Of a stretch of 64,000 nucleotides of DNA, positions 21,891 through 40,099 are shown one piece after another. Below the pieces are notes generated by a model. It was not told the DNA's origin, did not search any database, and worked only from the letters and a program-made list of their open reading frames with translations. The DNA is taken from contig CAVSHR010000003.1 of the NCBI GenBank assembly GCA_963727625.1, forward strand, positions 168,601 through 232,600. The letters are read 5' to 3'. Numbering within the stretch: position 1 is the stretch's first letter; each line of letters starts with the position of its first letter. This stretch comes from an uncultured delta proteobacterium (GTDB lineage Bacteria > Desulfobacterota > Binatia > UBA9968). A program made the translations under genes and the position numbers.

Positions 21891-22715
21891 TTAGAATACT
21901 TCCGCTGGTACACCGGTGCGCCAGCGCACTTCACCGGCGATCCATTGCAGCGTGATCACACTGACTTTTTCAATTCCTTTGTCTGGGGGCTCACGATCCA
22001 GGCTATAAATCTGAACGCCGGCGGGATGAATCTCCCGGATTTTCTGAATCCACATCGAAACCGATTCAGGGTCGGTGTTGGTGACTCTTCCCTGGATAAA
22101 ACAGGACTGGAGGTAAATATTCTTGAGTGCTTTCAATCCAACGATAATTTCGCCCATGTACACCGGCGCCGTAGGATGGTTGAGCTGGCAAAACATTTCC
22201 TCGCTGCCAGCGTCGAATTTCATGATTTTTACATCGATAAGTTCCAGCGCGGCGCGAACGGATGGTTCGCCTAAGGTCGACGAGTTTGACAGAATCGAAA
22301 TGCACGCATCGGGTTGGTAACGGTCACGAAGCTCTTTCATTTTGACAATGATTTCGGTGAGTGCCGGATAGACCGTAGGTTCGCCATTGCCGCAGATGGT
22401 GATGGAATCGAGCGTTTTTTTCCCACGGGACAGATCCGCCAACACCTTCTCGACAGCCGTTCCAACCTCATCAACCGTTGGTAGATTATCCAGCCCTCCG
22501 GAAGCGGGCGTCGTGTCTTCAGTCCAGCCGTATTGGCAGTAAATACAATTGAACGAACAGAGTTTATACGCGGTTGGCAGCAAGTTGATGCCGAGAGAAA
22601 TGCCGAGGCGGCGCGATTGAACGGGGCCGTAGACGATCTCCGGTTGCGGCGAATATTTATTCAGCAGTTGCGGCGGCCGGTGGCCTGTGCGTGATCTTAC
22701 CGTGATACGGTTCAT
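21891..22715 (-). CDS. Radical SAM protein (COG0731/TYW1-like Fe-S oxidoreductase)
   Basis: YGPVQSRRLGISLGINL, CSFNCIYC, GNGEPT. Confidence 0.85.
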   Translation of the reverse strand: MNRITVRSRTGHRPPQLLNKYSPQPEIVYGPVQSRRLGISLGINLLPTAYKLCSFNCIYCQYGWTEDTTPASGGLDNLPTVDEVGTAVEKVLADLSRGKKTLDSITICGNGEPTVYPALTEIIVKMKELRDRYQPDACISILSNSSTLGEPSVRAALELIDVKIMKFDAGSEEMFCQLNHPTAPVYMGEIIVGLKALKNIYLQSCFIQGRVTNTDPESVSMWIQKIREIHPAGVQIYSLDREPPDKGIEKVSVITLQWIAGEVRWRTGVPAEVF

Positions 22716-22740
22716 GCCGATTCCGGTCGCAACCGATGGC

Positions 22741-23892
22741 TCAGCGGTTTGCCTTTCGGTAACCCAACACGTCTTGCGCGATAATGAGCTTTTGAATGTT
22801 CACCGAACCTTCGACGATTTGATAGGACTTGGCATCGCGGTAATAACGTTCAACGGGAAATTCCGTCGAATAACCGTAGGCGCCGAGCATTTTGAGCGCG
22901 GCGTCGGCGGAGAATGCCGCGGCTTCGGCACCGGCGTATTTCGCCATCGAGGCCTCCCAGTTGTAGGGTTGGCTGCGGTCAGCTAGACAGGCTGCGCGGT
23001 AAACCAGCAGACGGGCCGCTTCTTCCTGTACGATCATCTGCGCGATGAGATCTTGGTTCATTTGAAACTGGCCGATCTTTTGACCGAACTGCTCGCGCTG
23101 ATTGGCATAGCTCACTGCCGCCTCGCGGGCGGCCTTGGCGAGTCCGATGGCGCCGGCGGCGCAGCCTAGGCGCGTGTGATTCAAGTGGCGCATGCAGATT
23201 TTGAAGCCGTCGCCTTCTTGACCGATGAGATTCTCCGCGGGAATTTTAAAATTGTCGAAGGTTAACTCGCCGGTGGGCGAGGCATGCGCGCCCAACTTGT
23301 CGAGGTCGCGGCGGGTCACACCGGGCTGATTCAAGTCCGCATAGAAGGCCGACATGCCGCGATGCTTCTGCGCGCGGTCGGTGTACGCAAAGAGGATGCC
23401 GGCGTCGGCCACGGTGGCATTGGTGATCCAGATTTTGGTGCCGTCGAGGCGATAGTAGTTGCCGTCGCGCCTGGCAGTAGTCTTCATCGCCGCCACATCC
23501 GAGCCGGCGTCGGGTTCGGTGATGGCGAATAATCCCACGGATTCGCCGCTTAGAAATCCCGGTATATGTCTAGTCTTTTGCTGTTCGTTGCCGAACTCGA
23601 AAATCGTCACGGCCGGACCGGCTTGCATATTCAAATAAACCCGAATGGCGCTGTGAACGCGCGCGATTTCTTCCGAAATCAGAGCGTGGGCGAGGAAGCC
23701 GAGACCGTTGCCGCCGTACTCTTCGGGAATCAAACAGCCGTAGAATCCCAACTCGCCCATTTTGATCACTAGATCTTTGCGAAAAATATGTTCCCGGTCG
23801 TCCTTCGTTGCGCTCGGAGCGATCTCTTTCTCGGAAAAGTCACGCGCTAATTTCTGAACTTCGGCCAACTCTTCCGGCAGCTCAAAATCCAT
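22741..23892 (-). CDS. Acyl-CoA dehydrogenase, closely resembling non-decarboxylating glutaryl-CoA dehydrogenase
   Basis: ITEPDAGSD, KLGAHASPTGEL, LNHTRL, FQMNQD, GAYGYSTE, C-terminal RKANR, as recalled for Desulfococcus multivorans GDH. Confidence 0.8.
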   Translation of the reverse strand: MDFELPEELAEVQKLARDFSEKEIAPSATKDDREHIFRKDLVIKMGELGFYGCLIPEEYGGNGLGFLAHALISEEIARVHSAIRVYLNMQAGPAVTIFEFGNEQQKTRHIPGFLSGESVGLFAITEPDAGSDVAAMKTTARRDGNYYRLDGTKIWITNATVADAGILFAYTDRAQKHRGMSAFYADLNQPGVTRRDLDKLGAHASPTGELTFDNFKIPAENLIGQEGDGFKICMRHLNHTRLGCAAGAIGLAKAAREAAVSYANQREQFGQKIGQFQMNQDLIAQMIVQEEAARLLVYRAACLADRSQPYNWEASMAKYAGAEAAAFSADAALKMLGAYGYSTEFPVERYYRDAKSYQIVEGSVNIQKLIIAQDVLGYRKANR

Positions 23893-25048
23893 GTCGGCGC
23901 TCCTTGTGCAAAAGGCTCTTAGCGATCACGAGCTTTTGAATTTCCGAGGAACCTTCATAGATGCGCAGGGCGCGCACGTCGCGGTAAAGTCGTTCCATAA
24001 CGTTTCCTGCCACGACACCGTTGCCGCCGTGAATCTGTAGCGCCTGGTCGACGATTCGCTGCGCCGCTTCCGTGGCGAAGAGCTTGGCGATAGATGACTT
24101 GAGCGGCAGATCCGGTCCCTCCATGTCATGTGTCCAGGCAGCCTGATAAACGAGAAGACGGGACGCCTCTAAATCGGCCGCCATCTCGGCGATCTTAAAT
24201 TGAATCCCCTGAAATTCGCCGATGGCGCGGCCGAACTGCCGTCGGTTTTGGCTGTAAGAAATCGCTTCCGCCAAGGCTCTGCGGGCGAAACCGACAGCGG
24301 CGGCGCCGACGCTGCAGCGCAGGGTGTCAAGGGTCCGATAAGCGATAGTCAGTCCATCTCCTTCGCCGCCGAGCATTTGTTGTCGCGGCACGAAACAGTT
24401 TTCAAAGGCCACGACGCCGATCGGGTGAGGGGAAAGCAACCGAGTTTTTTCCTTGACCGTGAAGCCGGGAGAATTGGCTTCTACGATAAAAGCGCTAACG
24501 CCCTTGGCCTTCGCACCGGGGTCTGATGAGGCGAAAACGATGTAGGTGTGCGCGATGCCGGCGTTGGAGATGAAGCATTTAATCCCGTCTAAACAGTAAC
24601 CGTCGCGGACTTTTGTCGCCCGTGTGCTAATGGCCGAAGCGTCGGACCCGGCTTCAGGCTCGGTGAGCGCGAAAGCCGCGATGTTTTCCGCGGTCGCTGC
24701 CGGCGGCAAGTACTTCTTCTTTTGCTCTTCCGAGCCGGAGACGACGATCGGGTAACTGCCGAGGGCTTGAACACCGAACATGACGTCTGCCAGGGCTGAA
24801 CAAGAGGCGAGTTCTTCGCGGATCACGCAAAGGTCGCGAGCCTGAACGGTTGCACGGAGGCCTCCGTATTGACCCGGAACCACATAACCCATGAAACCGT
24901 CTTGGCCGAGTTGTCGCGCGAGCCGGATGGCGTCGCGCTCAAGCGTTTCTGGATCAGACTCAAGATTCAGCGCATTGCGATGCGACCATGAACTGAGCCT
25001 TTCACGTAGTGTGCGAGCTTGATCATCGTCTAAAAAGTCCATGATCAA
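23882..25048 (-). CDS. Acyl-CoA dehydrogenase (abm-cluster-like)
   Basis: LCVIREELA..SALADVMFGVQALGS, AAFALTEPEAGSD, LYRDVRALRIYEG. Confidence 0.85.
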   Translation of the reverse strand: MIMDFLDDDQARTLRERLSSWSHRNALNLESDPETLERDAIRLARQLGQDGFMGYVVPGQYGGLRATVQARDLCVIREELASCSALADVMFGVQALGSYPIVVSGSEEQKKKYLPPAATAENIAAFALTEPEAGSDASAISTRATKVRDGYCLDGIKCFISNAGIAHTYIVFASSDPGAKAKGVSAFIVEANSPGFTVKEKTRLLSPHPIGVVAFENCFVPRQQMLGGEGDGLTIAYRTLDTLRCSVGAAAVGFARRALAEAISYSQNRRQFGRAIGEFQGIQFKIAEMAADLEASRLLVYQAAWTHDMEGPDLPLKSSIAKLFATEAAQRIVDQALQIHGGNGVVAGNVMERLYRDVRALRIYEGSSEIQKLVIAKSLLHKERRHGF

Positions 25049-25060
25049 CAGCCAGCGGTG

Positions 25061-25510
25061 TCAGCTGGAAATTTCCTTTTGATAATGCAGCATTTTGCCC
25101 TGGACGAAGCCGAGCCGGCTGAAAAAATCCTGCATTTCATTCTGGCTGTTGCTCACCAGGGTGAAGATGGTCTTGATACCGTGGTCTTCAGCCGATTCGG
25201 CGAATTGACCGACTAATTCCTGAGCAATTCCCTTGCGGCGATAGGCTGGGTCAACACCGATTATTTCAATCCACGCTACGGTCCCCGGCAATCCAAATTC
25301 AAATTCACCGGCCCGCCCCAATACAAACCCGACCACGCGGTTGTCGCGTTCGGCCACCAAAGAGGCCCAGTGGGGCCGAATAGCTTCGGAGATTTCGATT
25401 CTCTTCTCCCAGTACTCGGGCCGCGCCACCCCGGTCTGGCGCTCCTCCATGCTGACGATCGCAGGGAGATCGCGCTTCTCCAGATTTCTGACATAGATCT
25501 CTTTTTTCAT
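25061..25510 (-). CDS. GNAT-family N-acetyltransferase (BadL-like context)
   Basis: IGVDPAYRRKGIA acetyl-CoA motif, GEFEFG, FFSRLGF. Confidence 0.85.
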   Translation of the reverse strand: MKKEIYVRNLEKRDLPAIVSMEERQTGVARPEYWEKRIEISEAIRPHWASLVAERDNRVVGFVLGRAGEFEFGLPGTVAWIEIIGVDPAYRRKGIAQELVGQFAESAEDHGIKTIFTLVSNSQNEMQDFFSRLGFVQGKMLHYQKEISS

Positions 25511-25533
25511 AGGCTTTTCCTCTCGCTTCGAGC

Positions 25534-26328
25534 TTAACTCCGGTTAAAACGCTGCGGTCGTTTCTCGACGAAGGAATTGTATCCCTCCACGAAGTCCGCG
25601 GTTTCCATGCACCTCGCCTGGGCTGCCGCTTCCATTTCCAGCGCAGTTTCTAGATTGATGTTCGCTTCATATTCGAGAAGCTCCTTGGTGACTCCCAGCG
25701 CGTACAGCGGCCCGTCCTTCAATCGATTTGCCCACTTGTAAGTTTCATCCATCAAAGCATCAGCCGGCACGACGCGATTGGCCAAACCGATACGGTGCGC
25801 CTCCTGGGCATCGATGGTATCGCCGAAGTAGACCAGCTCGGTGGCTTTGCCCAGGCCGACGATTCTCGGCAACAAGTACAGCGCGCCCATATCGGCGCCT
25901 GATAGACCCACTTTTACGAATAGAAAAGCCGCACGTGCTTTGTCGGAGAAGAGGCGCAAGTCCGAGGCGAGCATGAGCATCGCGCCAGCGCCGGCGGCGA
26001 TGCCGTTGACTGCGGCGATGATCGGCTTCTTTAAGGCGCGCATGTTTTTGATGACGTTGCAGGTCATGCGCGTGAAATTATAGAGTTCGTCGCCTTTCAT
26101 CTTGAGCAGCGGCCCGATGATGTCGTCGACCCGGCCGCCGGAACAAAAACCTTTGCCGGCTCCGGTCAGCACAACGACCTTGACCGTGTTGTCATGGGCC
26201 ATTTCCGCCGTGAGTTTTTCCAATTCGGCGTAAGTCTGGAAGGTCAGCGCATTGAGTCTTTCGGGATCGTTTAGGCGTATCGTTGCAATTCCTTCGTTGT
26301 TCTCAAAAACAAAACTCGAATAACTCAT
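25534..26328 (-). CDS. Enoyl-CoA hydratase family protein (abm-cluster type)
   Basis: LNALTFQTYAEL, GFCSGG, FLFVKVGLSGADMGA. Confidence 0.85.
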   Translation of the reverse strand: MSYSSFVFENNEGIATIRLNDPERLNALTFQTYAELEKLTAEMAHDNTVKVVVLTGAGKGFCSGGRVDDIIGPLLKMKGDELYNFTRMTCNVIKNMRALKKPIIAAVNGIAAGAGAMLMLASDLRLFSDKARAAFLFVKVGLSGADMGALYLLPRIVGLGKATELVYFGDTIDAQEAHRIGLANRVVPADALMDETYKWANRLKDGPLYALGVTKELLEYEANINLETALEMEAAAQARCMETADFVEGYNSFVEKRPQRFNRS

Positions 26329-26360
26329 CCGGTGCTTCTCCTTGCATCTAGCGTTTCGAT

Positions 26361-27140
26361 TCAGGCCATCACCGCGCCGCCATCGACCTGGATGCCCTGG
26401 CCGGTAATCCCTCTAGCGCGATCTGATGCGAGCATCAACGTCACGTACGCCACTTCTTGCGGTTCGATCAGGCGCCGCTGCGGGCAACTCGCCGCCAGCA
26501 GTCCGATCGCTTCATCCAGGGACTGGCCGCGTTTTTCCGCCATGCGTCGCGCGTTGTCACGGGTCAATTCAGTGTTGACGTAGCCGGGGCATACGGCATT
26601 GACGGTCACGCCCGACCTCGCGGTTTCGATCGCCAGAGAGCGGGTCAGGCCGAGAAGCGCGTGTTTCGATGTGGCATAGGCGGCAATTTGCGGGTAGGCG
26701 ACCCGCGCTACCGTCGAAGCGATATTGATAATCCGACCCCATCGCGCGCTGACCATTGGCCGCAAAAAAGCTTTGCAGCAGTTGTAGGCGGCGCTCAGAT
26801 TGACGCGCATGACTTCTTCCCAAAGACTATCCGGCATTTCGAGAAAGGCCGCCGCCGGCGCGATGCCGACGTTGTTCACGAGGATTTGCACCTCGCCGAA
26901 ACGACTTTCGATCTGGCGCTGTAAATTTTCGACCTCGGTTTTTTTTGTCACGTCGCAGGTCGTTGCCATCAGTTCGGCGCCGTGGCTGTCTACTTCCGCG
27001 GCGAGCTGGTCAAGGGTCTCCGCCGTTCTGCCGGTTACGACCAGCCGGCTTTTCTCCGCGGCAAATGCCAGAGCAATGGCCCTACCGATGCCGCGCCCGG
27101 CGCCGGTCACCAGAACGACTTTGCCGCATAGATCTTTCAT
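26361..27140 (-). CDS. SDR family 3-hydroxyacyl-CoA dehydrogenase-like protein
   Basis: TGAGRGIG, YATSKH, VNAVCPGYV. Confidence 0.88.
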   Translation of the reverse strand: MKDLCGKVVLVTGAGRGIGRAIALAFAAEKSRLVVTGRTAETLDQLAAEVDSHGAELMATTCDVTKKTEVENLQRQIESRFGEVQILVNNVGIAPAAAFLEMPDSLWEEVMRVNLSAAYNCCKAFLRPMVSARWGRIINIASTVARVAYPQIAAYATSKHALLGLTRSLAIETARSGVTVNAVCPGYVNTELTRDNARRMAEKRGQSLDEAIGLLAASCPQRRLIEPQEVAYVTLMLASDRARGITGQGIQVDGGAVMA

Positions 27141-27143
27141 GGG

Positions 27144-27923
27144 TCAGTCGCCGGTAAAGTTCGGTTTGCGTTTCTCCAAAAACGCTTTAGTTCCCTCGGC
27201 CAGATCCTGGGTGTGCGCGATCGCGCCGAAAGTTCGCGCTTCGAATTCAAGGCCCGCCGCCAAGCCGACATCCAGGCTACGATTGATCAGCATCTTCGAG
27301 GCTTGCAGGGCGAGACGCGGCAAGGCGGCCAGCTTGGCGGCGAGACTGTTCGCTTCCGCCAAATACGTTCCCGTCGGCGCGACTTTCATGACCAAGCCCG
27401 CGGCCAGCGCTTCTTGGGCCGTGATCGGATCGCCGGTGAGAATCATTTCTTTGGCCTTGGCGATGCCGATCAAACGCCCCAGTCTTTGCGTGCCGCCGCC
27501 GCCGGGAAAAGCGCCGATCTTGATTTCCGGGAGCCCAAAGCGCGCGCTCTCCGAAGCGATGCGAAAATCGGCGGCCAAAGCCAATTCGCAACCGCCGCCG
27601 AGGGCAAATCCCGAAATTGCCGCAATCACCGGTTGAGGCAGCGATTCAACTTGGTCAAAAAGGATTTGAAATTCCCGTGCGTGGTGATAAGAGGACTCGG
27701 CGTTGGCGGGACCGCCCATTTCGCCGATGTCCGCACCGGCGCAAAAGATTTCGTCACTCCCGGTAATGACGACCGCTCGTATCGCCGGTTTGCGCGCCAG
27801 TTCGTGCAGTAGGCTCTCCATTTCTTGGCGCATCTGCGTATTAAACGAATTTTTCTTTTCCGGCCGGTTCAACCGGATTGTCGCGACCGCACCGTCCTCT
27901 TGAAATTGCAGGGTTTGATACAT
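27144..27923 (-). CDS. Crotonase / enoyl-CoA hydratase
   Basis: FCAGADI, GGGCELA, GLPEIKIG, GGGGTQRL (both catalytic Glu present). Confidence 0.9.
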   Translation of the reverse strand: MYQTLQFQEDGAVATIRLNRPEKKNSFNTQMRQEMESLLHELARKPAIRAVVITGSDEIFCAGADIGEMGGPANAESSYHHAREFQILFDQVESLPQPVIAAISGFALGGGCELALAADFRIASESARFGLPEIKIGAFPGGGGTQRLGRLIGIAKAKEMILTGDPITAQEALAAGLVMKVAPTGTYLAEANSLAAKLAALPRLALQASKMLINRSLDVGLAAGLEFEARTFGAIAHTQDLAEGTKAFLEKRKPNFTGD

Positions 27924-27982
27924 TCCTTCCTCATTTGAAGAATATCGTTTAATGAATACTTATGCTTGTTGACCGAGCGCCA

Positions 27983-28230
27983 TTACGGGTATCGCCCGTA
28001 TACCGCTCTGTCCGGATAAACCTTTTGCCAATACTGAGCCGATTCCAACAACTCACGGCAGGCCTTGTTGCAGATCGCTGCTCGGCCAAACCTGCGCCAT
28101 CGCAAGCCAGAACATCCAACGCATGACCGCGCAGCTGAGGATAGGCTTGCAACCGGACGCTATGACTGAGCTTATCGAGCGGACATTTCAACGAGAGGAC
28201 GTAATCGGCGGATAAAAATCTACACATCAT
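27983..28230 (-). pseudogene. Small Cys-rich protein with one frameshift
   Basis: RBS, then ...LKCPLDK...DVLACDG, continuing in the next frame as ICNKACRELLESAQYWQKVYPDRAVYGRYP-stop. Confidence 0.5.
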
Positions 28231-28248
28231 GGCCTTTTACCTTTCCTC

Positions 28249-29103
28249 TCACTTTAGATTGAAGAGCTCCGCCGCGTTATCGCGCAGCAGTTTACGCTTG
28301 GTGGTTTCTTTCAACCCCATCTCTTCCCACTGATCGAGACTCTCTTTCCAGGGCAGGCCGTTGGTTCCCCAAAGACAACGATCCAGACCCATGCGGCTGT
28401 TAATATAATGAATAATCTCGGGCTTGAGATATTTTGGCATCCAGGCGTCGACGCCGAAGTAAACGTTGTCCCATTTGTAGCAGACCGAAATCAGCTCCTC
28501 GACCCAGGGCCAACCGGTATGGGCGCCAATGATCTTGAGGTCGGGAAAATCGCTGGCGATACGATCCAGATAAATCGGCCGTGCATGCTCGCTAGGCATC
28601 GCTTCGAGAACATGCCCCACTTGCATCGACACCGGCACATTAAGCTCCACGCACTTGGCATAGAGCGGATACATTTTGGCGTCGTGCAACGGGATGTCGA
28701 AACCGTAGATGTGAATATAAACACCCTTGAAACCATGGACCTTGATCGCTTGCTCCAGTTCCTGCAACGACTCCTTGATTCGGAATGGATTGTAACTGGC
28801 AAGGCCGACAAAGCGGTTTGGATAACGAGTCGTGTATTGCGCGACTTCTTCCAGGGTCGTGTCCATGTACATCCACTTGTTGCGGTACGACCACATCTTG
28901 CACTGGGTGATGAAAACCTTGTCGACGCCCGCTTCGTCCATCTTGGCGATCATCGCCTCGATGCTGTCGTACTGCGGCAGGCCGCCGATGGCCTTCTCCA
29001 TACGGCAGATGAGCTCGCCCTTTTTCGCCTCGTTCCACTTGGCGATGAATTCCGGCGTCGCGACGTAATACATGATGTCGATGGCTTTGATGTCGTTTCG
29101 CAT
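28249..29103 (-). CDS. Amidohydrolase_2 family metal-dependent hydrolase
   Basis: YPLYAKCVEL, QVGH, IIGAHTGWPW, LWGTN. Confidence 0.88.
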   Translation of the reverse strand: MRNDIKAIDIMYYVATPEFIAKWNEAKKGELICRMEKAIGGLPQYDSIEAMIAKMDEAGVDKVFITQCKMWSYRNKWMYMDTTLEEVAQYTTRYPNRFVGLASYNPFRIKESLQELEQAIKVHGFKGVYIHIYGFDIPLHDAKMYPLYAKCVELNVPVSMQVGHVLEAMPSEHARPIYLDRIASDFPDLKIIGAHTGWPWVEELISVCYKWDNVYFGVDAWMPKYLKPEIIHYINSRMGLDRCLWGTNGLPWKESLDQWEEMGLKETTKRKLLRDNAAELFNLK

Positions 29104-29198
29104 GGCTACCTCAAAATAAAATGGATAATTGAAAATTGAAGATGATAACTCAAAATTTGACGTTTCATTTAATTATCCATTCTCCATTATCAATTTTC

Positions 29199-29963
29199 TT
29201 ACACCATCGTCAGCCCGCCGCTCACGCTCAATGTTTGTCCGGTGATAAATTCTGCCGCCGGCGACGTGAAAAAAAACACCGCCTCGGCGATTTCTTCGGG
29301 TTTCGCCGGACGCCGAAAGGGTGTGGCTTTGGTCACCGCTTCGATGATCTTTGCGGTTTGTTCCGATTGACTCCTGACGGCTTGTAACAGAGGAGTCTCT
29401 GTAAGCCCAGGGCAGACGACGTTGACGTTGATCTTATAGCGCGCGACTTCGCGCGCTATCGTTTTAGAAAACGCGATCACCGCCCCTTTGGAACCGGCAT
29501 ACACCGCTTCCCAACTTGAGCCGACGCGCCCGGCGTCGGAGGCGATGTTGACGATCTTGCCGCCGCCGCGAGAGATCATCTGGGGCAAAACGGCTTTGGC
29601 AGTGTAAAGCACAGACTTGAAATTGATCGCCAACAGTTTCTCCCAGGTCTCTTCGTTGCTTTCCACGAAGGGTTCCAAACGATCCCAACCCTGGCAGTTG
29701 ACTAAAATGTCGACCTGCCCGAAGCGCGCGAGAATCTCGCTCACCATGCGATCCACATCAATTTTCTTGGTCAGATCGACCTGGCAAGCCAGCGCGTCGA
29801 CGCCGAGAGCTTTAACTTCAGCGCTGACTTTCTCGGCATTATCCGTGGCGATATCCGCAATCGCGGTTTTCGCGCCGGCACGAGCCAATGCCAGGGCCAC
29901 CGCTCGTCCGATACCTCCACCACCGCCGGAAATCAAAGCGACTTTTCCTTGAAGCTCCTTCAT
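29199..29963 (-). CDS. SDR, BadH-like (2-hydroxycyclohexanecarboxyl-CoA dehydrogenase-like)
   Basis: True start MKELQGKVAL overlapping the upstream stop; GWDRLEPF, ASDAGRVGS, YAGSK, SVSGGLTM. Confidence 0.85.
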   Translation of the reverse strand: MKELQGKVALISGGGGGIGRAVALALARAGAKTAIADIATDNAEKVSAEVKALGVDALACQVDLTKKIDVDRMVSEILARFGQVDILVNCQGWDRLEPFVESNEETWEKLLAINFKSVLYTAKAVLPQMISRGGGKIVNIASDAGRVGSSWEAVYAGSKGAVIAFSKTIAREVARYKINVNVVCPGLTETPLLQAVRSQSEQTAKIIEAVTKATPFRRPAKPEEIAEAVFFFTSPAAEFITGQTLSVSGGLTMV

Positions 29964-30790
29964 GCGACCCTCGCTTCCTCGACCGGACTCGTTTTCTCGG
30001 CGCGCAGTTTTTCGAGGCGGCGTAGCGCCAAGAGGGCGGCCCCCAAAGCGCCGACGAGTTCGGGTTCCTCGCTTACGTTGATCTTTCTTTTGAGCGTTTC
30101 CTCCAGCGCTTTGACCATGCCTTTTTGCCGAGCCACGCCGCCGACGAAGGTAACCTCGTCTTCCATACCGGAGCGCTTGAGCAACGCCAAGGCCCGCGAA
30201 GCAAGCGAGTTGTGCACGCCGCGGAGAATATTTTCGATAGTCTCTCCGTTTGAGACGTGATTGATAATCTCCGATTCGGCCAAGACTGCGCAGACGCTGC
30301 TGATGGTCTGCGGCTTCTTCGCTTGAATCGAGAGATCCCCGACTTGCTCGATTCCGACCTCGAGATACTTGCAGGCGCGTTCGATGAAGCCGCCGGCCCC
30401 CGCAGCGCACTTGTCGTTGGTGCGGAACTCGCGCACCTTGCCGGTGTCGGTGACCCGCAGCGCTCGCGTGCTTTGCGCGCCGATGTCGAGCACGCAGCGG
30501 GTCTTGGGAAAGAGAAAAACCGCGCCTCGGCCGACGCAAGTAATATCGGTAATCTGCACGTCGCGAAAGGGGACGTTATAGCGACCGAAGCCGGTGGTGG
30601 CTATGTAATTGATGTCGTTATCCTTGAGCCCCGCTTCTTGAAGCGCCAAGTCCAACACCTCCCGGGCGACCGCGGCGAAATCCGGCCGGGTTTTGACGGA
30701 TGCTCTGGCGCAAATACGCCTGTCCCCATCCATGATCACCGCCTTGGTCGACTTTGCGCCCATGTCAATGCCAGCGACAAAAGTCATCAT
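29960..30790 (-). CDS. ASKHA ATPase activase subunit (BcrD/BzdP-like)
   Basis: GIDMGAKSTK, TTGFGR, NDKCAAG, SSVCAVLAESE. Confidence 0.88.
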   Translation of the reverse strand: MMTFVAGIDMGAKSTKAVIMDGDRRICARASVKTRPDFAAVAREVLDLALQEAGLKDNDINYIATTGFGRYNVPFRDVQITDITCVGRGAVFLFPKTRCVLDIGAQSTRALRVTDTGKVREFRTNDKCAAGAGGFIERACKYLEVGIEQVGDLSIQAKKPQTISSVCAVLAESEIINHVSNGETIENILRGVHNSLASRALALLKRSGMEDEVTFVGGVARQKGMVKALEETLKRKINVSEEPELVGALGAALLALRRLEKLRAEKTSPVEEARVA

Positions 30791-30808
30791 GCCTCCTTAA
30801 AATAAGCG

Positions 30809-31642
30809 TCAGGCAGTCGGCTCTGCCTGGATCGCTGTTGCCTGGGGCTTTTCCCCTGTTGCCTTCGTGGCGCGCTCCAGGGCGAAGATGCTTGCGCCCA
30901 GTGCGCCGACGAAATGAGAATCCGGACTGACGTTGAGCTTCATACCGAGTTTTTCTTCGAGCGCACGCACCATGCCGATGTTGAGCGACACGCCGCCGGT
31001 GAAAGTCACTTCAGGTTCAATGCCGACACGCCGCACCAGTGAAATGGTCCGCGCGGCGATAGCGCTGTGCACGCCGCCGAGGATATCCTCGGTTTTTTTG
31101 CCTTGGGCGAGGTAGGACATGATGTCAGACTCGACGAAAACCGTGCAGACGGTGGTCAGGCGCACGGGATTTCGCGCTTGGAGCGAGATATCGCCGATAT
31201 CGCCCAAGCCCATGCCCAAAGCCTCGGCGGCGCTGGCAAGAAATCTTCCGGTGCCGGCGGCGCACTTGTCGTTCATGACGAAGTCCTTGACATCGCCGTC
31301 GATGCCGATTTTGATGCCCTTGGCATCCTGGCCGCCCATGTCGATCACCGTGCGCGTGTTGGGAAAAAGATAACTCGCGCCGCGCGCATGGCAGCTGATC
31401 TCGGTGATCTGGGCGTCGCCGAAGGTCACTTTGTAGCGGCCGTACCCGGTGCCCACTACGTAAGCGACATCTTCCCGTTTGACTCCCGATTTTTGCAGCG
31501 CTTCGACGAAGCACCTTTCGGCGGCCCGGGTGACGTAAGCGCCGGTGTCGGTCAAGGCTCGGGCGATGATCTCAAACTTGTCGTTGAGTATAATTCCTTT
31601 GGTCTGAGTCGAGCCAACATCGATCCCTGCGGCGTAAATCAT
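30809..31642 (-). CDS. ASKHA ATPase activase subunit (BcrA/BzdQ-like)
   Basis: [39 protein letters not shown]. Confidence 0.9.
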
Positions 31643-32940
31643 GCTGCGCCTCCTGCCTCCGCGCTGGCACGGACCATTTTCTTGTGCTCCAATGATTCGA
31701 AAAAAGCGTCGATGCGGTTTTTGAGCTGGGCTTCGGAAAAATATCGCGGATCTTCGATATCCGATTCGATCAACAGAGTGGGAACGTTTAGTTCTTTGGT
31801 GAAATATTCACGCATGTCGCCCTGTCCCGCGGAAAAGAGGCGGCAGCTTTTGACCGAGTGAATCACCAGAGCGTCGGCATGCCACTCTTCGACATAACGG
31901 CGGATCTGCTGGTAGCGCTGCAAGAAGTTGCGGTTGGTGACGTTCCACTGGAGCATATGCTGGGCGATGGATTCCAACGGGTGGTTGGTATCATGCCGGA
32001 AGCCGAATTCCCACAGGCCGCCGACAGTGGAGTAGGTCGAGGCCACCGCCACCGCCCCCCATTTGGAAAACATATCTCGAAATGTCCGCAGGTACGGCCA
32101 AGGCGGCGGTCCTTCAATGACGAAGCGGAAACGCTCCTCAGGTAACGGCCCGGTTCCAAGCCGCACTTTTTCTTCCATCTCTTTAAGGGCAGTTTCAAAA
32201 AATCTCACTCCCTCTTCGGTTCCCCTCAGGCAATAGAGCGGCGCCATCATAGTCACCGAATCGAAATAGGCGTCGAAGGGAGAAGGAGTATTCTTGGTTA
32301 GCCCCTTGATGCGCGACCACATCTCGCCGGTTTCGCTCGAGCGGCGGACGATTTCTTTCAGCCGCGCGTAGTCGAGCTTCTTTCCTGTCAATTTCTCGCA
32401 GATCTCGATCACCTCTTCAAGCTGGCGCACGACGTAAGTAATGTCCTCTGGGCTCGGTTGTCCGGATGGATCGCGCGAAAATGGAATGTCGAGGTTGTAC
32501 AGTTGCCCGTCGCAGTACTCGGCCAGGTGCTCGAACCACTGGAGGTAGACATTGCAGCCCACGTAGTTGCAGAGGATCAGCGACGGCAGCGGAATCGTTG
32601 CGAAGGGGGTCTTGCGGTCGCCGAGAAACATGCCCACATCCGCTTTCACATAGGCGCAGTTGTCCATCGAGTAGCCGAGTTCCTCGGCCTTTTGGATAAA
32701 CGGCAGGGCGCTCTTTTTGACCGCAAGCTGCAGGGCATCGATCTCCGGATAGATTGGGATCATGTCGAACGCTTGGATCAATTCCACCGGGTTGCCGCTG
32801 ATCAGCATGTAGACGGCTTTGCCCTCGCCCTTTTCCGCGGCCCGGGTGACGCGCTCGAAGTAGCGCCCCATCATGTCTTTTTGCAGCAGATGCATCTGAC
32901 CCTGATACTGAGTTTTTTCGGCTACAGCTGTTTCCGCCAT
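31639..32940 (-). CDS. Benzoyl-CoA reductase/2-hydroxyacyl-CoA dehydratase family subunit (BcrB/BadE-like)
   Basis: [52 protein letters not shown]. Confidence 0.88.
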
Positions 32941-32949
32941 AAGGTTCTC

Positions 32950-34107
32950 CTAATCGAAAAGCATTGACTCGACAAAGGTCTCGACCTCGGTACGCGCTTT
33001 ATCGAAGATCCACATCTTTTCCTCAAACTCGAGGCATAGGTGCGGAATACCCTCTTTTTCCAGCGCCCGTTTATAAAGTGCGTAGTCGAACAGCGCTGGC
33101 TCGCAGAATTTTGCTGCCAGGATTAATACCGCGGTGGCGCCGGTCTCCTTGAATTTGTCGATGAGATGTTTGGATTTGGGCTCGCGGGTATCGTGTTTGA
33201 CGCCGGAATAAACGCTTTGATTGATGTAAGCATCGGCGATGTTACGCAGGGGATCGCCTTCGGTCGAGATATCTCCAGGAAACCAGCGCCAACCAACGAG
33301 GAAGTCATCGTCCAGAATGTAGCAGCCGGCGGCCTCCAGGCCGTCGAGCAGCTCGATGGGCGGCTGCTCGCAGAAAGAGCCTTCGAGGACGACTTTGATC
33401 CTATCCTTGGGCTTTTCGTGGCGTTGGCGCAGTTCCGGCAGCGCTTCGTTGAGTATGGCGATGTGTTCCTGTGGCGGGAGCAGGGTGCCGACGCGGGTTA
33501 AGACGTAACACTCTACAGTGGAAAGATTCTGCGGCGTCTCTCTGCGGATGGCATAGAGTTCCCGCATCAGGCGACGCTGTTCATTATACAGCGAGATACT
33601 ATTTCTCAAGCCATCGTCGGTGATCTTTTTTCCGGACAATTGCTCATAGCTGGCGGCAAGCCTTTTGTACTCAGAGATCAAGTATTCCACGGTATGGGGG
33701 GAAGTCATGTTCTGGGGAAAGTGTATGTATTCCACCATCAGATCGGGAAAGTTTCTTTTGAAAACGCTGCCGAGATTGCGCGCCGGGTCGCAGATCGAGT
33801 GAAAAACCATGCCGTCGAGAAACTTGAGCCTCTCGGTGAGTCCCAACTCAAGGGTGCTTTTGACAATGGAACAAATGAAGGATTGAAAACGAGAATCGGC
33901 GTGGGCGATCTCCAGCCGGTTGCCGGCGCCGATGATGCCGACAGGCAGCATGCCCGCGGCATGAATGAGTTCGACGGGAGTGTAGACCGGATAGCACCCG
34001 ACCATTTTCTTATCGGGATTCGCTTTCTTCGACTCTACGGCGAGATCGAGTGGCGAAATCTCAAGGGGCTCGCGGTACCGAGAAACAAAATTCTCGACAG
34101 TTGTCAT
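32950..34107 (-). CDS. Benzoyl-CoA reductase family subunit (BcrC/BadD-like)
   Basis: PVYTPVELIHAAG, FQSFICSI, SICDPARN, GSFCEQPP, KFCEPAL. Confidence 0.88.
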   Translation of the reverse strand: MTTVENFVSRYREPLEISPLDLAVESKKANPDKKMVGCYPVYTPVELIHAAGMLPVGIIGAGNRLEIAHADSRFQSFICSIVKSTLELGLTERLKFLDGMVFHSICDPARNLGSVFKRNFPDLMVEYIHFPQNMTSPHTVEYLISEYKRLAASYEQLSGKKITDDGLRNSISLYNEQRRLMRELYAIRRETPQNLSTVECYVLTRVGTLLPPQEHIAILNEALPELRQRHEKPKDRIKVVLEGSFCEQPPIELLDGLEAAGCYILDDDFLVGWRWFPGDISTEGDPLRNIADAYINQSVYSGVKHDTREPKSKHLIDKFKETGATAVLILAAKFCEPALFDYALYKRALEKEGIPHLCLEFEEKMWIFDKARTEVETFVESMLFD

Positions 34108-34357: not shown

Positions 34358-34924
34358 GTGGCGCGAACTCTAAGGTCTCATTCTATCAAAGCCATCGCCG
34401 GGCAAAGGGCGGAGGACGCCATGTGGGGCATCCCCGAGTCGCCTGAGTTCTCCGCCGTGCAGCATATGATGAATGAGTTTAAGACCCACGAAAACGACGA
34501 GGCGGAGTGGCTGAAGACTTACCAAAAGACTGCCGATGAAACAGACGATCCGCTCGTTCGCTTTCTGTTGAGTCTGATCATCGCCGACGAGGAGCGGCAC
34601 CATCAGATCATTGACCGCATGATAGCGAGGCTTAAAAACGACCTCGCCGAAACGCGGCCGGAAAAAATTTTCCAAGAAAAACAAGGTCCCGCCGGCAAAA
34701 ATGCCGGGCTACGAGCAGCGTTGGATCGATTTCTCGAAGTCGAGCGCAACGGCATCAAGGAATATGAGAGGTTGAGCAAGGCCAGCGGGGGGTTAGGTCA
34801 TGACTTGTTCGGACTGCTCTGCCGCACGATGGTTCATGACTCGATGAAGCACATCGGCATTCTCGATTTTTTACGGCGCAGGTTGCGTGAGCCCAAGAGC
34901 GCTAAACCTAGGCGAAAAAAGTGA
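34358..34924 (+). CDS. Ferritin/rubrerythrin-like four-helix-bundle protein
   Basis: DPLVRFLLSLIIADEERHH, EVERNG, HDSMKH diiron-type ExxH repeats; AAGGAG RBS. Confidence 0.75.
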   Translation: MARTLRSHSIKAIAGQRAEDAMWGIPESPEFSAVQHMMNEFKTHENDEAEWLKTYQKTADETDDPLVRFLLSLIIADEERHHQIIDRMIARLKNDLAETRPEKIFQEKQGPAGKNAGLRAALDRFLEVERNGIKEYERLSKASGGLGHDLFGLLCRTMVHDSMKHIGILDFLRRRLREPKSAKPRRKK

Positions 34925-35016: not shown

Positions 35017-36105
35017 TTAATTGAGAAACTTCATTTCGATGAAATCGACCAGAGGACCGATGCGATCCGGTTGAAAATTCGGGGCTGTGGCTGCCGGCGA
35101 TTTCGAGCCCACCGTCGCAACAACTAAATCACTCGCCCTGCATAGACGTTTATCGTCGTGCCCCGACAGCACTTCGATCTTTGGCCCAGGTTCCTCGTGA
35201 AACCCTTCCACTAAGACGATGTCGTGGCCACTAAAATGAGGCAAGATTTGCTCCAGTGAATTGCGATCACTGGCGGCGCGAAATAGCGCAACGTGAGCCG
35301 GTGCCATCAGCGCAACCGTATGGGCACCCGCTCGCCGGTGGCGCCAGGTGTCCGTGCCCACAGAGTCCACTTCGGCGGGAAAGTCGGAATGATGATGTTT
35401 GACAGTGCCAACCCGATATCCGCGCGCGGTTAACTCGGCGACGAGTTTTTCGATGAGCGTGGTCTTGCCGACTTTCTTAAAGCCGACGACATGTAAAACT
35501 CGGGCGGGGACTGCGGTTCGTGAGCGGTCGGGCGGCTGGGACGCCCCGTTGGACTGCGCGCATGGAATGCAGAGCGTTTGTCCTGCCAGGTGAATTTCCC
35601 GACGGAGATTTATTCCCTCGCCGCAAGAGTCACAATAGACCCTTGGGCTACGAAAGCCCGGCATGTTCTCTTCGGGGATTTCTACCCAGGCTGGCTGAAT
35701 CCCAAAGAGTAAATCCTCGGGCATGACGGTGTAAGCTTGCTTTTGCGCCTCCCTGGGATTTGCCGCATTGGGCGCATAGGCGGCAGCATGGTCTCGCGCA
35801 TTGTCTTTGGCGAGAACTCGAACCGCTTTCTGCGCTGCCGTGTTTATAAAGGTTGCCGCCATCTTGCCATAGTCGAGAAACTTCAGGGTTCGCTTGCCCA
35901 GCGAGCAGCCGGTCACGGCTTGCACTGCGTCGGTGGCGCAACGATCCATCTCGACGTAAACAATCAGTTTTTTGCAGCCGTGTGGTTCGTCGATACCGAC
36001 TTCACGGCAACCTACCATGGCCATGCGCACGCCGAGCACTTGCCCGGCGCAGTGATGTCCGTGAAGAGAGGACGATTCCTTCAGCAGTTCAGTCAATGGG
36101 CGCAT
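35017..36105 (-). CDS. FmdE-domain / zinc-finger / MobB fusion protein
   Basis: HGHHCAGQVLG, CATDAVQAVTGCSLGK (FmdE); CDSCGE..CIPC; VGFKKVGKTT, VKHHH, LVEGF (MobB). Confidence 0.85.
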   Translation of the reverse strand: MRPLTELLKESSSLHGHHCAGQVLGVRMAMVGCREVGIDEPHGCKKLIVYVEMDRCATDAVQAVTGCSLGKRTLKFLDYGKMAATFINTAAQKAVRVLAKDNARDHAAAYAPNAANPREAQKQAYTVMPEDLLFGIQPAWVEIPEENMPGFRSPRVYCDSCGEGINLRREIHLAGQTLCIPCAQSNGASQPPDRSRTAVPARVLHVVGFKKVGKTTLIEKLVAELTARGYRVGTVKHHHSDFPAEVDSVGTDTWRHRRAGAHTVALMAPAHVALFRAASDRNSLEQILPHFSGHDIVLVEGFHEEPGPKIEVLSGHDDKRLCRASDLVVATVGSKSPAATAPNFQPDRIGPLVDFIEMKFLN

Positions 36106-36180: not shown

Positions 36181-37692
36181 TCATGACCGACTTTTCTCAA
36201 GTCGCAACTGTTGCCAGACAGAGACCGCTTTTTGGCCGTTGCGATCGCTCTGCGAGCCATCCCAAACGGCGAATGCCACCGGGACCGTCTCGCCCGGTGT
36301 GAGCTGACGATCTCGGGAACTCTCGGTTCTCAAGGGCCGGATCATCACCACGCGCCACTGACCTTCGCGCCAGACCGCGCTGCCGCGAATCTGTTGGTCA
36401 TCGAGGGGTTGTGGGGTCAAAGTGCCGAAGCCCTCGGCGTTCAATTCAGTTATACGGGACTGTGGTACCACCGAGTACAGTCCGTTCCCCGCAGCGCGCG
36501 CCGTCGCATAAACGGGGTCCGAGTCGAATGGATAGTCGTCTATTGCTAAGTTGGGATATGCTTTGGTGAAAGAATCGGCAATCGCTTTCAGTCCATTATC
36601 CGCGCGCCAGTACCAGATGTTGACGCCCGCGGTTTTTTCACCCATCGTGAAGCTCGGTGTTTTCCCGCTGAGGGGGAACTGAGCGGCGACAGCGTCGGCG
36701 AATGCTTGCGGTCGGGCCGCCGAAAAATCTGCGGTGGGATCATCCCATTCGATACATAAAGCCAAATCGCTTACTGTGTACAGGGCCCGAATCCGGAGGG
36801 AGCGAATAGTTTTTTCTCGCGCCCACAGCGTCATCAGTTTGACTTCGATAGGCGACACGCGCTCCCAGTCAGGGTTGAACGGATCCGCGGGATCGATGGC
36901 TGTTCGGGCGCGCTTGGCCGTGATTAAGACCGAAGGGTTGGCCAGGGCAGGCTTAACTGGCGTGCGCCCAAGAGACTGCACATAGGCGACCAGTTCCCAG
37001 GACTGTTCCGGAGTTAGCGAGTCGCTGAACACGGGCATCGGTGTGCCACCGACTCCGACTTGAATCACCTTGTAGATATCTTGCGGGGTCGCGCCCTGTT
37101 TGAAAAGGTCCGGGCGTGTGAGGTCGCGCGGGCGGATGGGATATCCCCATTCATCTCGAAGGTCTGCAACCGAGGAGCCATCGCCTCGTCCGCCCGGCCC
37201 ATGACAGGAATCACAACCGGCATCGACATAGAGTTGCTTACCCGCTGCGACCATCTTCGGTGTGAGGTGTGGCAGGGCGGGAATCTTGACCGGCTGGCCC
37301 GGCTTGGAAAAGGCGGCGGAAAAGGTTTTGATGTAGTCCACCAGGGCCAAGCGATCGCTTGGACTGAGATTCGCCCAAGCGGGCATGGCGGTCCCGGGTA
37401 TTCCCCGGGTGATCGTGCGCAAAAGATCGGCATTCGTCGGTGTAGTCGGAGTCGACCGAAACTTAAAAATTCCGCGGGTAAAATCACGCGGTTCGGGAAA
37501 AATGAGATAGGCTCCCGGCCCGTCTCCACGGCCCTCCGCTCCATGGCAAACCGCACAGTTGGCGGAATAAAGTTCCTTGCCACGGGTTAGGCTTATTGTC
37601 GGGCGATTTATTTTCTGCGCCGCCAACGCCAACGTTGATGCGAACACCGCGACCACAAGGCCGATCATCCAATTGAACTTCATGCGGATCAC
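36181..37692 (-). CDS. Diheme cytochrome c fused to a DMSO-reductase type II heme b (EbdC/NxrC-like) domain
   Basis: Signal peptide, CAVCH and CDSCH, then EWDD, DAVAAQFP, FTMGE, VNIWYWRA, AEGFGTLT, AFAVWDG..RNGQK; GTG start after AGGAGG. Confidence 0.85.
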   Translation of the reverse strand: MIRMKFNWMIGLVVAVFASTLALAAQKINRPTISLTRGKELYSANCAVCHGAEGRGDGPGAYLIFPEPRDFTRGIFKFRSTPTTPTNADLLRTITRGIPGTAMPAWANLSPSDRLALVDYIKTFSAAFSKPGQPVKIPALPHLTPKMVAAGKQLYVDAGCDSCHGPGGRGDGSSVADLRDEWGYPIRPRDLTRPDLFKQGATPQDIYKVIQVGVGGTPMPVFSDSLTPEQSWELVAYVQSLGRTPVKPALANPSVLITAKRARTAIDPADPFNPDWERVSPIEVKLMTLWAREKTIRSLRIRALYTVSDLALCIEWDDPTADFSAARPQAFADAVAAQFPLSGKTPSFTMGEKTAGVNIWYWRADNGLKAIADSFTKAYPNLAIDDYPFDSDPVYATARAAGNGLYSVVPQSRITELNAEGFGTLTPQPLDDQQIRGSAVWREGQWRVVMIRPLRTESSRDRQLTPGETVPVAFAVWDGSQSDRNGQKAVSVWQQLRLEKSRS

Positions 37693-37718
37693 GCTGCTCC
37701 CTCCTTTAATTTGCCACT

Positions 37719-38474: not shown

Positions 38475-38488
38475 CGCGGGGTCTCCGT

Positions 38489-39764
<1,276 letters not shown>

Positions 39765-39772
<8 letters not shown>

Positions 39773-40037: not shown

Positions 40038-40099
40038 GCTTCATCCGTCCTTAATATGGCTGGTTTTCTTACGTCCGGCCGTCTCGCGGTCCAGTGCGG

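Follow-up and report, generated by a model that had tools for sequence, protein, structure and literature searches.

A predicted class I aryl-CoA reductase operon with an abm-type accessory module in an uncultured member of the Binatia

Gene content of the operon

Fourteen genes on the minus strand form an operon spanning positions 34107–21891 of the window, the whole 64 000-nucleotide stretch of contig CAVSHR010000003.1 that was analysed (Table 1). Open reading frames and profile hits confirmed the coordinates of every gene in what an earlier note had described as a co-oriented minus-strand cluster of about 14 genes with overlapping start and stop codons. There are three such overlaps, and the remaining gaps measure 3–32 bases with a single exception of 95. 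Synteny was also borne out, as operon order and content are repeated across many genomes, which argues against a chance arrangement.

Table 1. Features of the operon and its upstream flank
Feature	Position	Strand	Family or basis
Reductase subunit C, BcrC/MbdN-like, predicted electron-transfer Fe-S subunit	32950–34107	-	PF06050
Reductase catalytic subunit B	31639–32940	-	PF06050
Subunit A, short ATPase/activator, 277 aa	30809–31642	-	PF01869; TIGR00241 above cut-off
Subunit D, ATPase/activator, 276 aa	29960–30790	-	PF01869; TIGR00241 above cut-off
SDR1, BadH-like hydroxyacyl-CoA dehydrogenase	29199–29963	-	top family TIGR03206, 294.8 bits, below cut-off 431.2
Amidohydrolase-fold protein, candidate ring-opening hydrolase	28249–29103	-	PF04909
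Small Cys-rich protein, frameshifted	27949–28230	-	without family match
ECH1, crotonase, both catalytic Glu present	27144–27923	-	ordinary enoyl-CoA hydratase, not Dch
SDR2, abm-associated SDR subfamily	26361–27140	-	identity to AbmA-neighbour SDRs
ECH2, PRK08258 crotonase, AbmA-associated type	25534–26328	-	NF006107, 358 against cut-off 330
GNAT, reductase-associated kind	25061–25510	-	PF00583; tree
ACAD1, abm-associated acyl-CoA dehydrogenase subfamily	23882–25048	-	identity and tree
ACAD2, glutaryl-CoA dehydrogenase Acd type	22741–23892	-	NF045552, 483.2 above cut-off 470
Radical SAM protein, accessory	21891–22715	-	weak PF04055
Divergent 188-aa protein, paired ExxH motifs, ferritin-like by eye	34358–34924	+	5' of reductase

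The conserved core consists of the reductase, the BadH-like SDR (present in all 23 long close loci) and the amidohydrolase, while the radical SAM gene was found in five of those 23 loci. The small Cys protein reported earlier is a Cys-rich ORF but not an intact gene: its 93 aa are a frameshifted version of an 82-aa protein whose intact form occurs in 13 of 80 related loci. The 188-aa protein is kept upstream of the reductase in 21/80 loci and had no match in Pfam or NCBIfam.

As previously noted, the cluster itself holds no Dch, Had, Oah or BadI, CoA ligase or ferredoxin. Some candidates lie elsewhere in the genome, namely a benzoate-CoA-ligase-family gene about 95 kb from the operon, a 40 % identical Dch-like gene on another contig, small ferredoxin-like ORFs and a 2-oxoacid:ferredoxin oxidoreductase at 13487–16366. 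No Oah or BadI (TIGR03200, TIGR03210) scored above cut-off in the host genome, the best values being 81 and 134 bits against 464 and 468.

Placement of the reductase

Profiles, PDB matches and a B-subunit tree agreed with the original assignment to a class I aryl-CoA reductase of gene order C-B-A-D, and two HGD-D subunits were found together with the two distinct ATPase subunits of this class. The best PDB match of subunit C was MbdN (307 bits, against 189 for HadC and 135 for BzdN), and subunit B ranked MbdO (253 bits) above HadB (185) and BzdO (106). In a quick IQ-TREE reconstruction of 69 rows, B fell within the aryl-CoA reductase group and apart from HadB-like rows (support 100), with its clade sister to MbdO-like rows (support 93). 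By this placement B is a separate clade, grouping neither with 2-hydroxyacyl-CoA dehydratases nor with canonical BcrB, and its members are distributed over Binatia, Acidobacteriota, Chloroflexota and others.

Assignment to the known types was tried and rejected. For the canonical Bcr/Bad type (TIGR02259/02260/02261/02263), all four subunits scored below the cut-offs (205/312/189/345 bits against 578/487/313/421), and subunit A, which is not of the long form, aligned solely with the C-terminal half of TIGR02259. For the BZD type (TIGR03190–03192), scores were 143/104/179 bits against 454/449/380. For the MBR type, represented in the tree by the MbdO-like row P0138 and not by MbdO itself, B was sister to the clade and not within it.

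Residues S48, E66, C95, Y97, C129, Y303 and C366 of B coincide with BzdO active-site positions and include the hallmarks of class I reductases: three Cys ligands (C95/C129/C366), the catalytic E66 and the thioester-binding Tyr pair Y97/Y303. The position of BzdO His131 is Tyr in B and Phe in MbdO. Pocket positions were near-invariant across 76–80 aligned clade copies, among them loci with Dch-, Had- and BadI/Oah-like genes and a benzoate-CoA ligase. The operon encodes a class I aryl-CoA reductase, predicted to be ATP-dependent, of an unstudied branch.

Canonical Oah was present above cut-off in eight of 80 genomes carrying the clade reductase, a count that overstates independence since the genomes are related. 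Three of these (G072, G077 and G088) each contained a single HGD-D pair, the clade one, in a survey of class I reductase genes only, and in G090 both Oah and Had were above cut-off beside the clade reductase. This pairing with canonical Oah, with a near-invariant pocket, points to benzoyl-CoA as the likely substrate, which the operon reductase would be expected to dearomatise.

Ring opening and the abm-type module

The amidohydrolase was found in 13 of 17 reductase-positive family genomes versus none of 19 reductase-negative ones, in none of the eight Oah genomes of the clade, and in none of the canonical BcrB loci, which numbered 80 and showed Oah in 53 cases. It is likely the ring opener, predicted to replace Oah, and the host likely degrades benzoate anoxically via this unusual enzyme. 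Motif inspection revealed neither the HxH motif nor the strand-8 Asp, and the missing metal and Asp motifs count against this role. One genome (G085) has an amidohydrolase and a partial BadI-like gene together. Many other reductase genomes, including the single-chromosome assembly G076, have neither the amidohydrolase nor Oah/BadI-like matches, which suggests that ECH2 may open the ring there and perhaps in the host too.

SDR2, ECH2 and ACAD1 (the trio; with ACAD2, the cassette) were compared with abm clusters of Paracoccus denitrificans PD1222 and Azospirillum thermophilum, which served as surrogates for Azoarcus evansii. Identities of 36–51 % upheld their proposed membership of AbmA-associated subfamilies, with trees made for the crotonase and the ACAD and the SDR placed by identity. 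SDR2 was the genome-wide best match of two AbmA-neighbour SDRs (36 and 42 %). ECH2, which carries the NxLTF..Y.EL motif recorded earlier (as NALTFQTYAEL), was 50–51 % identical to AbmA-neighbour crotonases and has one Asp in place of the catalytic Glu pair. ACAD1 was 41 and 45 % identical to AbmA-neighbour ACADs (clade support 99). Binatia copies of the trio formed a branch of their own.

At least two of the three trio genes occur beside the reductase in 21/80 loci, across unrelated phyla and gene orders. In G090 a ligase-crotonase fusion, an SDR1-like gene and the trio are present besides Dch/Had/Oah and a second ligase, and a comparable extra module was found in two of 80 canonical BcrB loci (L238 and L240). 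Where Dch/Had/Oah exist, the trio comes as an additional module that brings a ligase of its own; this points to a second substrate and favours the 'otherwise substituted' benzoyl-CoA that had been offered beside the amino compound. Module ligases scored 366–393 against HbdA (cut-off 1000), indicating that they are not HbdA orthologues. The best guess for the second substrate is 3-hydroxybenzoyl-CoA, and the trio more likely serves a hydroxylated compound than aminobenzoate. The trio and ACAD2 were also present, with neither a reductase nor AbmA, in five of seven reductase-negative relatives examined, which a second substrate leaves unexplained.

Gene content, family placement, active-site residues and co-occurrence were observed, and from these we infer the individual steps of a route in which we place middling confidence. 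A ligase encoded elsewhere would form the aryl-CoA; A and D, hydrolysing ATP, would send electrons of reduced ferredoxin by way of C to B, whose aqua-[4Fe-4S] site would form a 1,5-dienoyl-CoA. Hydration by ECH1 or the distant Dch-like enzyme and oxidation by SDR1 would yield a cyclic beta-oxoacyl-CoA, which the amidohydrolase would open to a C7 dicarboxyl-CoA, so that SDR1 and the amidohydrolase replace Had and Oah. Beta-oxidation would then lead to glutaryl-CoA, to be oxidised by ACAD2. The abm-type module would be optional, serving the second, probably 3-hydroxy, substrate. The product of AbmA is 2-amino-5-oxocyclohex-1-ene-carbonyl-CoA. Reduced 3-hydroxybenzoyl-CoA would tautomerise to its des-amino twin, 5-oxocyclohex-1-ene-1-carbonyl-CoA, which ECH1 and SDR1 could convert to 2,5-dioxocyclohexane-carbonyl-CoA. 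Deamination in the abm route should lead to this same compound, and its further conversion would fall to SDR2, ACAD1 and ECH2, the last as a hydrolase or isomerase with a single Asp. Such a common intermediate would explain why AbmA clusters combine the trio with RidA and reductase clusters combine it with a hydratase and a BadH-like SDR.

A somewhat unlikely alternative is that benzoyl-CoA alone is degraded. Either a single line as in Rhodopseudomonas would operate, in which ACAD1 or the reductase gives a mono-enoyl-CoA, BadK and BadH have their counterparts in ECH1 and SDR1, and ECH2 or the amidohydrolase opens the ring to pimeloyl-CoA, or the cassette would be a family-wide housekeeping unit that came to lie next to the reductase on account of its last gene, a glutaryl-CoA dehydrogenase. 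The trio is indeed present in just nine of 23 long close loci, and the cassette occupies a fixed locus in reductase-negative relatives, where the host retains an ACAD2 paralogue (72 %); it lies away from the reductase in G034, G036 and G065, G012 has a second copy, and G076 has the trio yet no Oah, BadI-like or amidohydrolase match. However, the module adjoins the reductase in phyla and gene orders that are unrelated, and it is retained, along with a ligase of its own, where Dch/Had/Oah already provide for benzoate; ACAD1 scored far below cyclohexane-carbonyl-CoA dehydrogenase cut-offs.

The earlier note had proposed a dedicated anoxic aminobenzoyl-CoA route, with the reductase replacing AbmA and the amidohydrolase deaminating or opening the ring. 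This is improbable, although it agrees with the subfamilies of the trio and with the search for AbmA (NF006101), which gave no match in the host and none above cut-off in 80 genomes. An abm-like thioesterase occurs in 14 acidobacterial loci, RidA (60 %) directly follows the module of L238, hinting at an amino substrate there, and the genes for anaerobic 2-aminobenzoate degradation are called 'barely known' in a passage of PMC8388817. Against it, the clade works with canonical Oah/Had, its pocket is the same in benzoate-type loci, and the trio is optional. RidA was found in 0/80 clade loci versus 12/80 canonical BcrB loci (the host has only generic RidA, about 30 %, outside the operon), no kynureninase was found, and the host aryl-CoA ligase, present in 36/36 family genomes, shares 33 % identity with the AbmG-like ligase and has another pocket motif. 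Reduced 2-aminobenzoyl-CoA would, moreover, hydrolyse straight to an Oah-type substrate, so that a trio handling 5-oxo compounds would not be needed; a 3-aminobenzoyl-CoA variant is less excluded. The GNAT, once likened to BadL, fell outside the Rrf2-paired (BadM) clade that stood for BadL in the tree (support 100). The cluster contains no Rrf2 gene, and none of four Rrf2 genes above cut-off in the genome matches the paired type. BadL, for its part, regulates benzoate degradation and does not carry out a catabolic step (PMC6191541).

Least of all is it probable that the four subunit genes are those of a 2-hydroxyacyl-CoA dehydratase and activator feeding ordinary beta-oxidation: close homologues are so named by NCBI and the predicted fold is almost as near to HadB (TM 0.85) as to MbdO (0.87), but the tree separates B from HadB-like rows, Mbd and Bcr models give both HGD-D subunits their highest scores, the ATPase genes are two and distinct, and the adjoining genes are dearomatisation genes.

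It may tentatively be proposed, with the chances against it, that a single plug-in, the lower module of the abm pathway, serves two opposite chemistries of dearomatisation, that of AbmA with O2 and that of class I reductases with ATP (the new clade and canonical Bcr), which converge on a 5-oxo-cyclohexene/2,5-dioxocyclohexane-carbonyl-CoA, and that the metal-motif-deviant amidohydrolase of Binatia cleaves the ring as a C-C hydrolase of a new kind outside the crotonases. If this is true, soil and groundwater bacteria that are abundant but uncultured would possess an anoxic route, so far undescribed, for benzoyl-CoA bearing a meta-hydroxy or meta-amino group, and the lower abm and anaerobic 3-hydroxybenzoate pathways would share an intermediate that can be tested for. 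The reductase branch, the amidohydrolase and the shared intermediate offer three expressible targets.

Comparison with known systems

The reductase would represent a fourth class I branch, found widely among uncultured members of the Binatia, Acidobacteriota and Chloroflexota and annotated as a dehydratase. MbdONPQ (the MBR-type 3-methylbenzoyl-CoA reductase of Thauera chlorobenzoica; PDB 9g87, 9gai) comes closest to B and C in sequence and fold and likewise has two short ATPase subunits. It belongs to the sister clade, however, B is only 32–36 % identical to MbdO, pocket motifs differ (16 protein letters not shown), and the lower pathway here lacks Dch/Had/Oah homologues above cut-off. BcrCBAD (Thauera aromatica) and BadDEFG (Rhodopseudomonas palustris) share the order C-B-A-D, the catalytic Glu and three Cys, a reductase-associated GNAT, and a downstream BadH-like SDR and glutaryl-CoA dehydrogenase, whereas their A subunits have about 430–450 aa, Oah and BadI are absent here, and B is 38–41 % identical to rows passing TIGR02260.

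The SDR, PRK08258 crotonase and ACAD of the abm cluster agree with those of the operon in subfamily and order, but the operon lacks AbmA, RidA, the thioesterase, MarR and an AbmG-type ligase, and its cassette terminates in a glutaryl-CoA dehydrogenase. For the 3-hydroxybenzoate module of Aromatoleum aromaticum EbN1 (ebA720/722/723/736), the rows of PMC9765128 supplement 6 name hbrABCD and a ligase together with an SDR, an ACAD and a pair of crotonases. Compared by gene list only, the module resembles the operon in that such enzymes and a class I reductase are assigned to a substituted benzoyl-CoA, but it has its own ligase and transporter, with no amidohydrolase among those rows. ThnN of the thn operon of culture N47 and BamU of Geobacter metallireducens, related proteins likened here by description only, have the amidohydrolase fold and lie in anaerobic aryl-CoA clusters. 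They are candidate ring openers according to a proposal in PMC12016498, ThnN where oah is missing. With its clean either-or distribution against Oah, the amidohydrolase of this operon is a candidate for the same job.

Operon composition and placement of the reductase

The minus-strand cluster comprises the fourteen co-oriented genes given in the earlier note; start and stop codons overlap at three junctions, and the remaining gaps are short. The small Cys ORF of that list is present but carries a frameshift; in 13 of 80 related loci the corresponding 82-aa protein is intact. The last acyl-CoA dehydrogenase (ACAD2) scores over the cut-off for the glutaryl-CoA dehydrogenase Acd, and homologues of reductase subunit B at 95–96 % carry the name Candidatus Binatia. 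A genome-wide search of the source genome (G000; 98 % complete, 6.3 % contamination) found none of the ring-opening hydrolases Oah and BadI, the dienoyl-CoA hydratase Dch or the hydroxyacyl-CoA dehydrogenase Had over cut-off. This genome holds a Dch-like gene with 40 % identity to those of related loci and, approximately 95 kb from the operon, one benzoate-CoA-ligase-family gene over cut-off. The operon is real; its reductase forms a new branch within a known enzyme class, and its lower pathway is non-canonical. This gene arrangement was not described in the literature searched, which mostly lacked subscription journals.

Subunits B and C scored highest with canonical Bcr models, yet under every cut-off. 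Their nearest solved relatives were the MBR-type subunits MbdO and MbdN, respectively, and both ATPase subunits (A and D) are short. A quick tree was built from 69 rows, namely the 58 full-length sequences among 150 representatives together with locus copies. There, B joined copies from Binatia, Acidobacteriota, Chloroflexota and Eremiobacterota to form a separate clade (support 99), whose sister group (93) contained the MbdO-like row P0138. The enclosing group (100) took in both TIGR02260-passing rows and left out those resembling the dehydratase subunit HadB. Active-site positions of BzdO, as described in the accessible part of PMC11971306, map to S48, E66, C95, Y97, C129, Y303 and C366 of B, and these residues are near-invariant (76–80 clade copies aligned per position). 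By its placement, the predicted enzyme is a class I aryl-CoA reductase, as the earlier note had claimed, and lies outside the BCR, BZD and MBR types. Fold was rejected as a discriminator of reductase from dehydratase, with the predicted model (pLDDT 78.6) giving 0.87 for MbdO and 0.85 for HadB. A plasmid search for reductase references returned matches of only 20–29 %. L020 (G034:C14), a 4-kb locus with only B and C visible, carries a second reductase pair of 55 % identity whose branch is sister to the window clade.

Neighbouring genes and candidate ring-opening enzymes

Locations of features in the window (no prefix), elsewhere in its genome (G000; contigs C3, C5, C6) and in compared loci (L numbers)
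Feature	Location	Strand
2-Oxoacid:ferredoxin oxidoreductase	13487-16366	minus
Reductase operon	34107 to 21891	minus
188-aa protein, paired ExxH motifs, no family match	34358-34924	plus
FmdE, zinc finger and MobB fusion	35017-36105	minus
Nitrate-reductase-like molybdoenzyme operon	36181-43642	minus
Glyoxylate-shunt genes (long isocitrate lyase, malate synthase)	52306-56965	plus
ACAD2 paralogue (72 %)	G000:C6:305090-307331	
4-Hydroxybenzoyl-CoA-reductase-like molybdoenzyme	G000:C5:528252-534929	
Aryl-CoA ligase	C3:95184	
PaaA/BoxB-like diiron gene (PF05138)	L054:15440-16165	
Aryl-CoA ligase/enoyl-CoA hydratase fusion (~800 aa)	L144:10347-12746	

The ferredoxin oxidoreductase, molybdoenzyme and glyoxylate-shunt genes have counterparts next to the reductase elsewhere, and in L043, L047, L052, L053 and L060 the reductase operon itself contains inserted homologues of isocitrate lyase, malate synthase or the oxidoreductase. 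They are consistent with anoxic growth on aromatic acids and give no proof of the substrate. The molybdoenzyme operon is of the Tat-type, type II DMSO-reductase family (1180-aa Mo subunit, small ORF, Fe-S subunit, chaperone and cytochrome c/heme b fusion); its proteins score below all NCBIfam cut-offs, and in 7 of 80 loci the reductase has a related alpha subunit as a neighbour. The FmdE fusion adjoins the reductase in nine loci and the 188-aa protein is divergent from it in 21 of 80, with Acidobacteriota clusters carrying an Fe-S repair protein (RIC) in its place. A search for FNR-like boxes found none upstream in the window and, at two mismatches, hits in 7 of 66 upstream regions; a promoter/terminator scan was near chance. 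A shared 9–16-base word (around TTGTAGTACCAGAATA), possibly an Rrf2 operator, precedes subunit C in about ten loci, not including the window. In sequencing runs, shares were at most 0.18, with two RNA runs at 0.05–0.07, and these were not counted as evidence.

Twenty-three loci had B identity of at least 79 % and no less than 9 kb of downstream sequence. All of them held A, D and the BadH-like SDR1, 20 the amidohydrolase and 17 the crotonase ECH1. The remaining genes were less constant: the crotonase ECH2 and GNAT (12 each), SDR2 and ACAD2 (10 each), ACAD1 (9), the full trio of SDR2, ECH2 and ACAD1 (9) and the radical SAM gene (5). The amidohydrolase was present in 13 of 17 reductase-positive versus 0 of 19 reductase-negative family genomes. 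It was absent from the eight Oah genomes, from six genomes with a close BadI/Oah-like gene (G098-G103) and from 80 canonical BcrB loci, many of them short, with Oah visible in 53. G085, carrying both types, is a counterexample to an either-or pattern. Neither the HxH motif nor the strand-8 Asp is present in the protein. As a candidate ring opener it has precedents in ThnN and BamU, whose role is likewise a proposed one (PMC12016498, PMC1924859).

Neither the amidohydrolase nor a BadI/Oah-like type turned up in several reductase genomes, one of them the single-chromosome G076, and ECH2 may therefore open the ring there. ECH1 has both catalytic Glu residues. ECH2 has neither, and carries one Asp where BadI/Oah-like rows also have Asp, a position we take to be that of the catalytic Asp of BadI/PaaG. 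A radical SAM homologue (45 %) in L155/L180 of G085 has a 3-hydroxyacyl-CoA dehydrogenase on one side and an amidohydrolase homologue on the other, with a glutaryl-CoA dehydrogenase near; because of these neighbours, the radical SAM gene may be part of this metabolism.

The abm-type module

The earlier note had placed SDR2, ECH2 and ACAD1 in the subfamilies accompanying AbmA, the 2-aminobenzoyl-CoA monooxygenase/reductase, and had AbmA missing; both points held. With two surrogate AbmA clusters as reference (Paracoccus AbmA over the NF006101 cut-off), SDR2 (36–42 %), ECH2 (50–51 %) and ACAD1 (41–45 %) were the genome-wide best matches of the corresponding AbmA neighbours. In trees, ACAD1 (support 99) and ECH2 (90) shared clades with AbmA-linked enzymes, which were closest to reductase-linked Acidiferrales copies. 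AbmA had no match in G000 and none over cut-off in 80 genomes, where one match was nearly full length and 21 covered half of the protein. Split AbmA halves were rejected as partners, none of the seven N-half and three C-half regions examined adjoining the trio. In G069 (L148), trio genes occur with a 29 % AbmA-like gene and RidA, apart from its reductase.

An ECH2 orthologue was also present in 13 of the 19 family genomes that lack the reductase, and in five of seven such relatives examined it is part of an SDR2-ECH2-ACAD1-ACAD2 cassette at a fixed locus that holds no reductase and no AbmA. Because of these occurrences, the trio is, judged from gene distribution, older and wider than a simple exchange of AbmA for the reductase. 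On C6, the ACAD2 paralogue stands where relatives hold the entire cassette. Only traces resembling SDR and ACAD1 sequences lie next to it, which would fit a move or duplication of the cassette into the operon. No PRK08258 crotonase was found in 300 genomes of the wider phylum (eight candidates scored per genome). The diiron gene lies between ECH1 and SDR2 in L054, L057 and L060; G000 has two copies at 66–68 % elsewhere.

Substrates of the clade and of the operon

Chloroflexota and Eremiobacterota clade members adjoin Dch-, Had- and BadI/Oah-like genes, in L098 also a benzoate-CoA ligase. Canonical Oah was over cut-off in 8 of 80 genomes searched, all reductase-positive Acidobacteriota; among the four of these checked, G072, G077 and G088 hold an HGD-D pair of this clade and no other. 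In G090, Oah and Had over cut-off lie near the reductase. Because the pocket is near-invariant across the clade, benzoyl-CoA is the most likely common substrate. The C3 aryl-CoA ligase was rejected as a dedicated feeder, being found in 36 of 36 family genomes, and the C5 molybdoenzyme as a benzoyl-CoA funnel, being below cut-offs with one Cys pair only in its beta subunit. The latter has two CoA ligases and a UbiD gene at its flanks, its large subunit is one of 26 of the xanthine-oxidase family matched in G000, and such genes occur in 10 of 17 reductase-positive and 6 of 19 reductase-negative genomes.

Acidiferrales group the trio into one unit with an aryl-CoA ligase and a BadH-like SDR; the ligase is often hydratase-fused (L144, L145, L146 and L149), and its pocket motif is unlike that of benzoate ligases. 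Module ligases are not HbdA orthologues. G090 keeps the unit alongside full Dch/Had/Oah, and L238 and L240 keep it alongside a canonical BcrB, a redundancy which suggests that it serves another substrate. Benzoyl-CoA as the sole substrate of the operon is regarded as rather unlikely.

An aminobenzoyl-specific route, in which the reductase replaces AbmA as the earlier note proposed, is improbable. Two observations favour it: 14 acidobacterial loci carry an abm-like thioesterase, and the module in L238 has RidA next to it. Against it, RidA, a flanking gene of the trio in each of the two AbmA clusters and present in 12 of 80 canonical BcrB loci, is in none of 80 clade loci, no kynureninase was found, the G000 ligase, present in 36 of 36 family genomes, has 33 % identity to an AbmG-like ligase and different pocket motifs, and the window GNAT falls outside the clade of the GNAT-Rrf2 pairs of 18 acidobacterial loci. 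BadL, according to the accessible part of PMC6191541, acetylates aminobenzoates only for derepression of the benzoate operon via the Rrf2 protein BadM.

That the operon serves benzoyl-CoA and a second, hydroxylated substrate is held with about even confidence. On chemical grounds, reduced 3-hydroxybenzoyl-CoA would share a 5-oxocyclohex-1-ene skeleton with the AbmA product, presumably so built, and the two would converge by hydration/oxidation of one and deamination of the other. In the types of gene it lists, the EbN1 3-hydroxybenzoate module resembles the trio module (PMC9765128, supplement 6).
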